Sequence record: AP019559
From: Escherichia phage SP15
Reading direction: 5' to 3' (one strand)
Length of the DNA: 64,000 nucleotides
The translations under genes were made by a program, and so were the position numbers. The notes below the pieces were generated by a model that searched no databases, was not told where the DNA came from, and saw only the letters and a list, made by a program, of their open reading frames with translations. Positions 7,622 through 11,550 of the stretch are shown piece after piece; positions within the stretch are counted from its first letter, which is position 1; each line of letters starts with the position of its first letter.

Positions 7622-7660
7622 TCAGCCGGGTTGCTAGTCGACCTGGCTTTTATTTTATTT
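7622..7660 (+). terminator. Probable rho-independent terminator after nrdD
   Basis: Imperfect hairpin AGCCGG...CTGGCT followed by TTTTATTTTATTT. Confidence 0.4.
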
Positions 7661-7715: not shown

Positions 7716-8096
7716 ATGGAATTAAAGCCCTATATAGTTGAGTCTACGTGTGGTAGTTTCCATCTGGGCGTGGATGATATTGCTGAAGCTGTCTTTGCTG
7801 CCACAGGTGATTACTCGCATATAGAGGGTGTTGCATACCCTACCATTATTGGCGATTGGGTGGGAACAAATCTAGATGTATCGCCTTATAACCCATATTG
7901 CTTGTTTGATGAAGACAGAGATGAAGTAAAATGTAATCTTGAATTTGTGTATAATAGAGTGTTAAAAGTATACCAACGTAGCCCCAATGGATACGAAGAT
8001 ATTACTTGGAGTATTAAACAGTATCTTAAAGATGTATACTCTAGTTTTTCTGACGAAGACCTAGAAACAGTTGCAGTGGAGTTTAATAATGACTAA
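7716..8096 (+). CDS. Hypothetical acidic protein
   Basis: 126-aa ORF with RBS GAGGAG downstream of promoter; no motif recognised. Confidence 0.5.
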   Translation: MELKPYIVESTCGSFHLGVDDIAEAVFAATGDYSHIEGVAYPTIIGDWVGTNLDVSPYNPYCLFDEDRDEVKCNLEFVYNRVLKVYQRSPNGYEDITWSIKQYLKDVYSSFSDEDLETVAVEFNND

Positions 8097-8295
8097 GAAT
8101 GTAAAACATCTTAAATATCGCTTAATTTATAACGGACGTATGGAAACAGAAGATCTGGCCCAGTTAGCTATTAATTCTAATGAGGTTACAGTGCGTGCGC
8201 TGGCAATTGAAAAGTTGCGTGCCTCTTATGAAAATCGTGTTATGGAACTAGAGGAGAAACTTTATGGCATTCTCGAAGCCGATGCTACCAGATAA
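8089..8295 (+). CDS. Hypothetical protein
   Basis: Small ORF whose ATG overlaps the upstream stop; coding-like composition. Confidence 0.4.
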   Translation: MTKNVKHLKYRLIYNGRMETEDLAQLAINSNEVTVRALAIEKLRASYENRVMELEEKLYGILEADATR

Positions 8296-8485
8296 GGGTT
8301 TAAACGCCGCTTTGGAAAACGCATTAATGCAGCACTGGGAAACTGGCTATAAGGATGGTGTTGAATCCTGCGCTACTATGCTAGAAGTTATTGCTAATAC
8401 CTTAATGGAGAAAGGCAATAAAGAATTAGCTGAGCTATTAGACAGTATTGGGCAAAACTTCAGAGAACAGGTGAAAAATGCGTAG
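8264..8485 (+). CDS. Hypothetical protein
   Basis: 73-aa ORF; stop overlaps start of Sir2-like gene (ATGCGTAG). Confidence 0.4.
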   Translation: MAFSKPMLPDKGLNAALENALMQHWETGYKDGVESCATMLEVIANTLMEKGNKELAELLDSIGQNFREQVKNA

Positions 8486-9296
8486 ATTAATTATTATTAG
8501 CGGTGCAGGTTTGAGTGTTGAAAGTGGTGTACGAGCTTTTCGTACTGATACTGCTAGTGGTAAAGCATTGTGGGATGATTATGATCTAGAAGAAGTATGT
8601 AATATTCATGCCTTTCGTGGTAATTTTTATCATAAAACCCATATGTTTTACAACAAGCGTCGTGAAGAGCTAAAAACTGTTGAACCTAATCTTGCTCATT
8701 TGCGTATTGGTGAGTGGTATAAACAATATCCAGGTCAAGTAGTAAACTTGACTACCAACGTTGATGACCTTATTGAGCGTGCTGGCGTTCCACATAGTGA
8801 CATTCTGCACATTCATGGGTACTTAAAAGAGGTTGTTGTGGCTGATAGTCACAATAGTAGTAATAAACGAGTTATTGATGTAGGATACAATTCTATTGAT
8901 CCAGATGACTATAAATGGGTTAAACCTAATGTAATCTTCTTTGGGGAGCATGCTCCAGCATATGCAGAAATGTACAATATTTTTGATGGTATTACCAATC
9001 AAGATATGATCATTGTGGTTGGTTGCTCTAACCAAGTAATTAACTTCTACTGGGAATTATTTCCTATTCTTAACCGTACTGCTGCCAAGCTAATGGTAGT
9101 TAACTACTATGATAGTGCCCTAGCGGCAGAACCAGGCTATCAAGGTATGACTCGTAGTGAGATGTACCAGCTGGAAGAACGCGGTATCCCTTACTGGAGT
9201 AAAGGGGCTGTAGATGCCTTCAGTGATCCTGATTTTATTGCTCGTGTAGAAGCTCATCTAGAGGGTAGACCTTATGTGTCAGGAAGTAAGAAATAA
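8478..9296 (+). CDS. Sir2-family (sirtuin/CobB-like) NAD-dependent enzyme lacking the zinc-ribbon cysteines
   Basis: Sirtuin motifs GAGLSVESGVRAFR, NLAH, TTNVDDLIERAG, ILHIHG; no CxxC...CxxC module between the catalytic His and the C-terminal Rossmann half. Confidence 0.75.
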   Translation: MRRLIIISGAGLSVESGVRAFRTDTASGKALWDDYDLEEVCNIHAFRGNFYHKTHMFYNKRREELKTVEPNLAHLRIGEWYKQYPGQVVNLTTNVDDLIERAGVPHSDILHIHGYLKEVVVADSHNSSNKRVIDVGYNSIDPDDYKWVKPNVIFFGEHAPAYAEMYNIFDGITNQDMIIVVGCSNQVINFYWELFPILNRTAAKLMVVNYYDSALAAEPGYQGMTRSEMYQLEERGIPYWSKGAVDAFSDPDFIARVEAHLEGRPYVSGSKK

Positions 9297-9459
9297 TGAA
9301 TGGGATATTTTCATAACTGAGTCTGGTACTTGGTGCTATAGATTTGCCTATAGGTTTCCTAGTGTAAGAAAACGGCTGGGGTACACATATAAAATTATCT
9401 ACACTACAGATAATATATGGTTGTCCTCTGGAGATGAGGGGAAACAGATATGTCCATAG
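9274..9459 (+). CDS. Hypothetical small protein (WCYR-motif paralog A)
   Basis: 61-aa ORF sharing DIF...G(T/S)WCYR motif with next ORF. Confidence 0.4.
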   Translation: MCQEVRNNEWDIFITESGTWCYRFAYRFPSVRKRLGYTYKIIYTTDNIWLSSGDEGKQICP

Positions 9460-9632
9460 TTAAATCTGTGTATACACATCCCGATGATATATTTGTATGG
9501 GCGGATGGTAGTTGGTGCTATCGATGTGAGCTATGGGAAATGGACTATAAATCTGATGACTATGGTGTCATATATGTTGATACGGTTGAGTATGATACGT
9601 TCTTAGAAAGGGACAAAAATGGAAATAAGTAA
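9450..9632 (+). CDS. Hypothetical small protein (WCYR-motif paralog B)
   Basis: 60-aa ORF, tandem paralog of previous. Confidence 0.4.
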   Translation: MSIVKSVYTHPDDIFVWADGSWCYRCELWEMDYKSDDYGVIYVDTVEYDTFLERDKNGNK

Positions 9633-10125
9633 TACTCCAATTATTTTTCTAGACATTGATGGGGTGCTTAATTCGAGCATCTCCCACCATCATGCACCTG
9701 ATGATGAAAAGATTTTCTTTGGAAGTGACTGGGTTTTTAAGCCACTTCTCAAGGCTTTTCAGGACTTTATTCGTCCTTCTCCAATAATGATTGTTGGGGT
9801 ATCTTCATGGTTCTCTGTCAGGAATGAGATGGAGAACGTTCAGATTATGACCGGATTAGATCTTATCGATCGTTTTCTTGGTACAACGGATTTTACTGGT
9901 GGTGGGCTATCTAGGGGTAATTCTGTTCTTCGCTTCGTTGAAAAGCATAAGCTCAAACATTGGTGTGTGCTGGATGACGCTGGTGCTATGATGTATCAGT
10001 ATCCAACTGTTATAGTCAATGGTAGAATTGGAATAAATCTTCAAGATTTAAGAGCTGTTAGCTATATGTTAGAATTTAGTCCAGATCTTGAAATGTGTAA
10101 AGCCCTACAACAATTTAAGGTGTAA
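9619..10125 (+). CDS. HAD-superfamily hydrolase/phosphatase-like protein
   Basis: Motif I FLDIDGVLN (DxDxV) and downstream VLDDAG. Confidence 0.55.
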   Translation: MEISNTPIIFLDIDGVLNSSISHHHAPDDEKIFFGSDWVFKPLLKAFQDFIRPSPIMIVGVSSWFSVRNEMENVQIMTGLDLIDRFLGTTDFTGGGLSRGNSVLRFVEKHKLKHWCVLDDAGAMMYQYPTVIVNGRIGINLQDLRAVSYMLEFSPDLEMCKALQQFKV

Positions 10126-10127
10126 AT

Positions 10128-10556
10128 ATGTTCAATAATGTGTTCTCTAAAGAAGCTAACCCAATATTAGTTAATTTTTGGCGTACTCTTCCAGCCAACC
10201 TGTACAATGAGGCTATTAATGCTCTGAAAATATGGTGTGAGAATAATGAAATCTCCTTTGCTTTTAAAGGCGAGGTTGAAGAGGCTCCCTGTATTGGTTT
10301 AATTGTGCAGGTGGAGGATGGTCTTGAAGAGATTGTCGGCTGGAAAGAGTTGGATGAAATGGGCTTGGTTTTTGCGTTAAACTATAAGCTGTTTATGCCC
10401 AATAAACACCGTATTGTTGTTAACTATAAAACCAATGAATCTCCTGGTTTTCAAGTTAATGAACGGTATGGTTGGTCTTACTCACCGGAAGAGGTAAATG
10501 ATGGTATCCAGAAACTTCGTCGTTTTGGTTATCAAATTCCGGGTTTAACTGCCTAA
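10128..10556 (+). CDS. Hypothetical protein (tandem paralog 1)
   Basis: 142 aa; shares PCIG, MGL(V/I)xALN, xIPGL with the next ORF. Confidence 0.5.
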   Translation: MFNNVFSKEANPILVNFWRTLPANLYNEAINALKIWCENNEISFAFKGEVEEAPCIGLIVQVEDGLEEIVGWKELDEMGLVFALNYKLFMPNKHRIVVNYKTNESPGFQVNERYGWSYSPEEVNDGIQKLRRFGYQIPGLTA

Positions 10557-10565
10557 GGAGGCACA

Positions 10566-10958
10566 ATGGAACAAGTATATTGGCGTCAGATCGACCCTAG
10601 TTTGGTGAAGCGTGCAGAGAAGCTGCTACAACGTTGGTTGGGGGTAAGACAAGCCTCCTTCACTTTTCCGGAGCAGCAAATAGACGATCCCTGTATTGGT
10701 GTTTTCCTATCAGGCTACGCTAGGGAATGGGAATTGGATTGGAATGAATTGTCTGCTATGGGTTTAATTGTTGCACTAAATTTCTCTTTGTTCCATCCAC
10801 GTGGTTTGGCCATATGTCGTGTGCCTGAGGACGGTTGTTCGCCCCATCTTTTACAGGTGGAAGATGATATTTGGGAGTACACTCCAGATATTCTCAAAGA
10901 AGCCAAAGAACAATTAAACCGTGTTGGAATTTATATTCCAGGCCTGAATGATGAATGA
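10566..10958 (+). CDS. Hypothetical protein (tandem paralog 2)
   Basis: 130 aa; paralog of 10128-10556; strong RBS TAAGGAGG. Confidence 0.5.
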   Translation: MEQVYWRQIDPSLVKRAEKLLQRWLGVRQASFTFPEQQIDDPCIGVFLSGYAREWELDWNELSAMGLIVALNFSLFHPRGLAICRVPEDGCSPHLLQVEDDIWEYTPDILKEAKEQLNRVGIYIPGLNDE

Positions 10959-11097
10959 TTTTTATTGGTTGACCTCTATAATCCGGGCTATTAGTGCTCG
11001 GATTATTGCCTAATCTTTCCAGCTAATTGACAGCATGAATAAATTGTCATTGACAAATTGAATAGATTATGTAATAATATGTGTATTGGAGGTAAAG

Positions 11098-11550
11098 ATG
11101 TCGCTCACACAACAAGAACTTTTAGATAATTTCCGATATGAAGATGGAAAATTATTTAGAACCACAGGAAGAAATGCAGGCAAGGAATGTTGTGTTTCAA
11201 CGGGAAATGGGTATTATCGTATTTCTCTAGGTAGTAAAACTATGCTCCGACACAGAGCCATCTTCTTAATGCATCATGGTTATCTCCCTGATTTAGTAGA
11301 TCATGAGAATACTATAAAAGGTGATGATCGTATTGAAAATCTTAGAGAGCAGACAGTATCCGGTAATCTAAGAAATATCAAATATAAGAAAGGAATGCAT
11401 GTTTACCCTTCTGGTAGTAAGAACTGGCAAGTAGTATTTACTATTAACCGTAAACGTATAGTTAAAGGAACATATGACAACTATGAGGTTGCATGTTCTA
11501 TGGCCAAGATGTTTAGAGGTCAATTATACGGTAGGGAATCAATCCAGTAA
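11098..11550 (+). CDS. HNH homing endonuclease (HNH_3 type)
   Basis: Motif LVDHENTIKGDDRIENLRE; start at ATG preceded by GGAGG; free-standing in an intergenic position. Confidence 0.7.
   Translation: MSLTQQELLDNFRYEDGKLFRTTGRNAGKECCVSTGNGYYRISLGSKTMLRHRAIFLMHHGYLPDLVDHENTIKGDDRIENLREQTVSGNLRNIKYKKGMHVYPSGSKNWQVVFTINRKRIVKGTYDNYEVACSMAKMFRGQLYGRESIQ

Follow-up and report, generated by a model that had tools for sequence, protein, structure and literature searches.

Two small adjacent genes in the early region of Escherichia phage SP15, here called ORF A and ORF B, are shown by profile comparisons to be homologous over almost their whole length and not just over the short WCYR motif that they share. 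The window analysed is a stretch of 64,000 nucleotides (sequence record AP019559). It belongs to a T5-like phage (Tequintavirus), since positions 8400–10200 are about 95–96% identical to T5, with 427 phage records matched. The protein of ORF A is 100% identical to T5.103 (YP_006931.1), and that of ORF B is 100% identical to T5.104 (YP_006932.1). An earlier note on this DNA had described an adjacent pair of ORFs of 60–61 aa just downstream of a sirtuin gene. Its coordinates and both peptides that it quoted (DIFITESGTWCYRF and DIFVWADGSWCYRC) were found to be correct, and the SIR2 gene in fact overlaps A. The features of the locus are as follows:

7716–10958, plus strand: early operon T5.100–T5.107, in which A and B are internal and translationally coupled
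8478–9296, plus strand: Sir2-like gene (T5.102), the upstream neighbour (Pfam SIR2, E = 1.1e-25), with its 3' end 23 nt into A
9274–9459, plus strand: ORF A (= T5.103), 61 aa, ATG start, the divergent charge-neutral (+1) paralogue
9304–9346, plus strand: A-copy DNA for the shared motif (DIFITESGTWCYRF), first copy of direct repeat D1
9450–9632, plus strand: ORF B (= T5.104), 60 aa, ATG start, the canonical, highly acidic (−7) family member
9486–9528, plus strand: B-copy DNA for the shared motif (DIFVWADGSWCYRC), second copy of direct repeat D1
9619–10125, plus strand: HAD_SAK_2 phosphatase gene (T5.105), the downstream neighbour (Pfam HAD_SAK_2, E = 5.1e-20), with its start 14 nt into B

The start and stop codons of Sir2/A, A/B and B/HAD overlap by 23, 10 and 14 nt, respectively. 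A Shine–Dalgarno-like sequence, agaggg, lies 8–9 nt 5' of the ORF A start, and another, gagggg, lies 7–8 nt 5' of the ORF B start. The operon is bounded upstream by a terminator-like site at 7624–7648, after nrdD, and in the T5 annotation T5.100 is preceded by a promoter and T5.107 followed by a terminator. The operon scan gave no promoter or terminator between A and B, the internal candidate sites being no more numerous than expected from shuffled sequence. An Rfam scan of 9000–9900 returned no credible RNA, and none overlapping ORF A or B.

The surrounding region has several further peculiarities. The same operon contains a second tandem pair of paralogues, T5.106/T5.107 (10128–10556 and 10566–10958), both DUF7415 and 32% identical (E = 7e-20). 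Just past the operon terminator, about 530 bp of inserted DNA with no counterpart in T5 carry an HNH_3 endonuclease ORF (11086–11550), which has its own strong promoter-like site at 11050–11078 (TTGACA-17-AATAAT with TG) and is likely to be a mobile homing endonuclease. Two overlapping small ORFs (8071–8295 and 8264–8485) lie 5' of the Sir2 gene. The megablast match to T5 starts only at 8477; compared with T5.101 (L001 2214–2447), the segment 8071–8485 has been exchanged or has diverged strongly. The T5.105 orthologue (9619–10125) carries a RefSeq/PHROG-derived label, "Sir2 (NAD-dependent deacetylase)", via phrog_18062, whereas Pfam assigns it to HAD_SAK_2 (5e-20); the label looks like a propagated mis-annotation.

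The earlier note had named pairwise alignment and profile search as checks of the relationship, and similarity confined to the short motif as the outcome that would speak against it. BLASTP of A against B, taken by itself, comes near to that outcome: it aligns only 13 residues, 8 of which are identical (E = 2e-5 as a single comparison). Pairwise BLAST sees the motif alone and therefore under-reports the homology, for which profiles are needed; PHROG 5116 and hhalign extend the similarity beyond the motif to about 43 of 60 residues. Both proteins cover positions 1–56 of the 56-position PHROG 5116 profile (A, 6.7e-24; B, 1.9e-29), and B also matches PHROG 28040 (E = 2e-13). A hidden Markov model of canonical members, from whose training set every A-type sequence was left out, scored B at 90 bits. 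A scored 12.1 bits, a low value taken alone, but one above all 2000 shuffles of A, whose maximum was 10.0 bits. The hhalign comparison of the A-type profile with the canonical profile of 55 sequences gave a probability of 95.5% and E = 1.5e-8 over 43 columns (A 7–52 / B 9–51). Sequences that bridge A and B over their full length are also known, namely KKP_3711 gp130 (WCYRFQYRLKGYKEALGSDFNTIYATTAEW) and the Epseptimavirus single copy S126 orf53 (WCYRFEFATDDFSWKSDDFCVIYEDTAEW). At the DNA level, the only trace is the direct repeat D1, of 43 nt, 72% identity and 182-nt spacing.

The AlphaFold2 models of the two proteins have the same beta-beta-alpha-beta-alpha topology (pLDDT 76.5 for B and 74.7 for A). 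The top five BFVD matches of the A model are canonical members, with the caveat that the alignment used for A included those members; the BFVD structure search as a whole returned uncharacterised family members only. A chance short motif shared by unrelated ORFs would account for the 13 residues of the pairwise alignment and for the modest 12.1 bits. Given the full profile coverage, the bridging sequences and the common topology, however, its probability is vanishingly small, and PHROG 5116, the canonical model and hhalign led to its rejection.

The family to which the two proteins belong has the consensus DDIxVWPDGtWCYRxELxEMxxKSDDYxV, its defining motifs being VWPDGxWCYR and K/M-SDDY, and B is canonical. 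The near-invariant positions (B numbering) are W17, W22, C23 and S35-D36-D37, all of which are present in B. A retains just W20-C21-Y22-R23; it lacks the first tryptophan and the SDD, having TESG in place of WPDG and GYTY in place of SDDY. By these residues, A classifies as a divergent, non-canonical member of the PHROG 5116 family. Its charge is equally deviant. Among 162 members of up to 75 aa, the median net charge is −9, 97% are at −5 or below, and none is at zero or above. B, at −7, is in line with the family; A, at +1, is outside its range. The domain is small and single, of about 45–60 aa, with the beta-beta-alpha-beta-alpha fold predicted by the models. The family comprises 1400 clusters (50% identity) at E ≤ 1e-3 and 385 at E ≤ 1e-10. 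In an index of 5.8 billion proteins, a single-sequence query gave 5 matches, a number set by word-index limits, and an alignment query gave 101; no Pfam domain or functional name was found among these 101.

The earlier note had treated the function as blank, and so do the databases. Searches with A and B against Pfam (E < 0.1), NCBIfam, PADLOC and PDB sequences gave no match, and the T5 and PHROG entries read "hypothetical protein" or "unknown function". A literature search on T5.103, T5.104 and their protein accessions found nothing relevant, and neither gene is treated in a 2026 preprint on the pre-early genes of T5. In two members, the domain occurs twice within a single chain (P0102, 180 aa; P0108, 99 aa), implying that tandem duplication recurs in the family. 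N-terminal fusions to a MazE/AbrB-like (P0116) or an HTH_31 (P0129) domain are rare. The A-type is limited to three 90% clusters, and the A+B arrangement to about 25–32 phage records, compared with 505 records with any member. The pair itself is already catalogued (as T5.103/T5.104 in GenBank/RefSeq and in a single PHROG), and tandem small accessory genes are ordinary.

Within the Demerecviridae, members were found in Tequintavirus, Epseptimavirus and Sugarlandvirus. Elsewhere among the phages, a member adjoins the DNA polymerase gene in Kolesnikvirus (Erwinia phage phiEa21-4), another lies between the EndoVII and RNAP genes in Cuernavacavirus (RHEph02), and others occur in Pseudomonas phage phCDa and Salmonella phage 7-11. 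A metagenomic phage block has the order PolA-EndoVII-PD-(D/E)XK-[member]-exonuclease. Across these unrelated virulent phages, early or DNA-metabolism modules are the usual setting. The family is also carried by 24 alphaproteobacterial plasmids, 16 of which are predicted to be conjugative, with DUF736, SSB, Phd/YefM, T4CP and relaxase genes as neighbours. In a Mesorhizobium element, the member lies between ArdC and genes for a large helicase and a Toprim primase, and one further member is directly 3' of a ParB_N gene. Judging from the types of neighbouring genes, the members on plasmids and integrative and conjugative elements (ICEs) would lie among leading-region-type genes. When the neighbours at 37 non-T5 viral loci were clustered, no neighbour family recurred across lineages as a conserved partner. 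A scan of species-representative genomes with one peptide pattern found only 3 loci; within the limits of that single pattern, the family seems to be rare in chromosomes.

Both genes carry the marks of real, expressed-type protein genes kept by purifying selection. Pooled Nei–Gojobori estimates from the non-overlapping codons of nine T5-like phages with the Sir2-A-B-HAD block gave dN/dS values of 0.092 for the Sir2 gene, 0.083 for A, 0.039 for B and 0.051 for the HAD gene. The frame of A is intact in all nine. Despite its low dN/dS, A has a dS of 0.545 (9298–9447, codons 9–58), roughly double the value of about 0.28 for Sir2, B and HAD, a possible sign of older allelic lineages or of mosaic exchange in this gene.

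A decaying A, an incipient pseudogene beside a B that alone is functional, would fit the loss of the most conserved family residues (WPDG and SDDY) and of the acidity. It would also fit the lack of A in most T5-like phages and its clean deletion in S130. A non-functional duplicate would nevertheless not be expected to combine many synonymous with few replacement changes (dN/dS of 0.083 at a dS of 0.55), nor to keep its frame in 9/9 phages, its Shine–Dalgarno-like site and its translational coupling. Moreover, the A-like gene of KKP_3711, with 40% identity, is the sole family member in the examined stretch of that phage. Decay of A is thus very improbable, and it was rejected on the low dN/dS and the intact frames.

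The spot occupied by A and B is an indel hotspot. In S130, A is cleanly deleted at a GGGAA microhomology, and Sir2 gains a new tail (...GKQICP). In mar004NP2 and SPLA5b, an out-of-frame remnant joining A(1–22) to B(41–60) and containing a stop codon is left between intact Sir2 and HAD genes. The two parts meet at TGGTG plus a TA repeat, where the extent of (TA)n slippage varies (L004 1500–1620; L005 1440–1560). An in-frame, 44-aa form of the same chimera also exists (P0005), and in P0004 the gene 5' of Sir2 is fused to the second half of B, with Sir2 and A deleted. Unequal crossover at the WCYR motif was considered as the source of the deletions but is not supported, because the junctions lie at non-paralogous microhomologies (GGGAA; TGGTG plus the TA repeat). 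The existence of such natural deletion variants implies that A and B are dispensable in nature.

At the same locus in APCEc03 and Epseptimaviruses, the family member and the HAD gene are separated by one more ORF of about 61 aa, unrelated and hydrophobic (MxKKIFKGIWKGLVWFVNLIG...; L003 2218–2403, L008 1646–1828, L006 1667–1852). Neither the window nor T5 has it.

A neighbour-joining tree places the T5 B with the B-like genes of Epseptimavirus (75% bootstrap), apart from A, and puts the A-type and the gene of the Enterobacter phage KKP_3711 in a clade of their own (100% bootstrap). A and B do not come out as sisters in this tree; the split between them is old and the duplication not recent. A sister relationship between A and the Epseptimavirus S126-type allele gains little support: the two have WCYRF and a longer loop in common, but the bootstrap is below 50%. 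The local gene duplication proposed in the earlier note thus stands in so far as A and B are true tandem paralogues, and it needs amending as to age and route. The pair may have arisen by an ancient tandem duplication followed by differential loss, and recombinational stacking of two divergent alleles is equally compatible with the data.

As to function, it is tentatively proposed, by analogy, that the canonical protein, B, may act early and by itself, binding or inhibiting a host protein that is basic or binds nucleic acids; this is a possible reading, short of a probable one. Soon after entry of the element's DNA, B alone would bind and neutralise such a protein, which could be a defence protein or a target of host takeover. 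A would have been retargeted through its charge reversal, either to another partner or to B itself. The number of copies at the locus would be altered by duplication or allele stacking on the one hand and by microhomology-mediated deletion on the other, as in an accessory arms-race gene. The grounds for the proposal are solely the size of the protein, its charge, its timing and its distribution over mobile elements. Other small phage proteins are commonly acidic too, however; the models, with a pLDDT of about 75, are only moderately reliable and resemble no known inhibitor fold, and a site in the early region is no proof of an anti-host role. The many members among replication genes fit an accessory role in replication or recombination equally, and the MazE/AbrB-like and HTH_31 fusions may indicate a regulatory one. 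The more ambitious reading is rather doubtful: T5.104-type proteins would be a new, widespread family of stand-alone anti-defence or host-takeover inhibitors of virulent phages and of early-entering conjugative regions, with T5.103 as a charge-reversed form retargeted to another host factor or as a modulator of T5.104.

In a competing explanation, the family would serve the phage's or plasmid's own machinery and not be directed at the host, as a small accessory protein in DNA replication, in recombination or in the regulation of early genes. In several phage lineages, members lie close to the genes for PolA, EndoVII, PD-(D/E)XK nuclease, exonuclease and RNAP, and on plasmids and ICEs they lie close to those for SSB, primase and ParB. 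Both placements agree with such a role, as do the rare fusions to DNA-binding domains. No one replication gene consistently co-occurs with the family, however, the natural deletions show the genes to be dispensable, and direct DNA binding is unlikely for a very acidic protein. On balance, a role in the element's own replication or regulation appears unlikely.

A closer link to the neighbouring genes may also be envisaged. The neighbourhood of Sir2 and a Swiss-army-knife (SAK) HAD gene in the T5-like phage SP15 has been proposed as an RNA-repair system acting on RNA ends (Iyer et al., 2022; PMC9503650); no mention of the two small genes was found in the passages of that paper that were searched. 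A and B could be accessory or regulatory subunits of this module, for example adaptors or inhibitors controlling the sirtuin. They lie exactly between the Sir2 and HAD genes and overlap both. A member is directly 3' of Sir2 in T5-like phages and in Klebsiella Sugarlandvirus phages, and Sir2 is near the A-like gene in KKP_3711 as well. This assignment is nonetheless quite improbable, as the association dissolves in both directions. Outside the Demerecviridae (in Kolesnikvirus, Cuernavacavirus, metagenomic phages and plasmids), members occur without a Sir2 or HAD neighbour. Conversely, Sir2 and HAD are kept in mar004NP2 and SPLA5b, from which both small genes are gone. No HAD gene is found at the matching position in Sugarlandvirus and KKP_3711, and conserved co-occurrence with Sir2 and HAD was not found across lineages, the linkage being confined to the Demerecviridae.

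The remaining value of the observation lies at the level of the family: a very acidic domain of about 50 residues with two sharp motifs, in about 1400 clusters, distributed over conjugative plasmids and phages that are not related to one another. As a model phage, T5 is easy to work with, and the natural single and double deletions, together with the charge-reversed paralogue, offer a cheap test case for the targets of small early proteins.

Among known systems, the Sir2-HAD neighbourhood proposed for RNA repair (PMC9503650) physically includes A and B. Unlike that module, the family is widespread without Sir2 and HAD, which in turn persist without the small genes. With T5.103 and T5.104 (PHROG 5116, 28040), the correspondence is complete: the proteins are identical, the order Sir2, A, B, HAD is the same, and there is no difference at the protein level. 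The T7 proteins Ocr and gp5.9, p56 of phage phi29, Ugi of PBS2 and the plasmid protein ArdA are small acidic inhibitors that act as nucleic-acid mimics or as blockers of host DNA-binding proteins. Searches by sequence and by fold linked neither A nor B to any member of solved structure in this group, and the likeness is one of analogy only: like these inhibitors, the canonical family members are small, strongly negative, encoded in early or putative leading regions of both phages and conjugative elements, and variably present.
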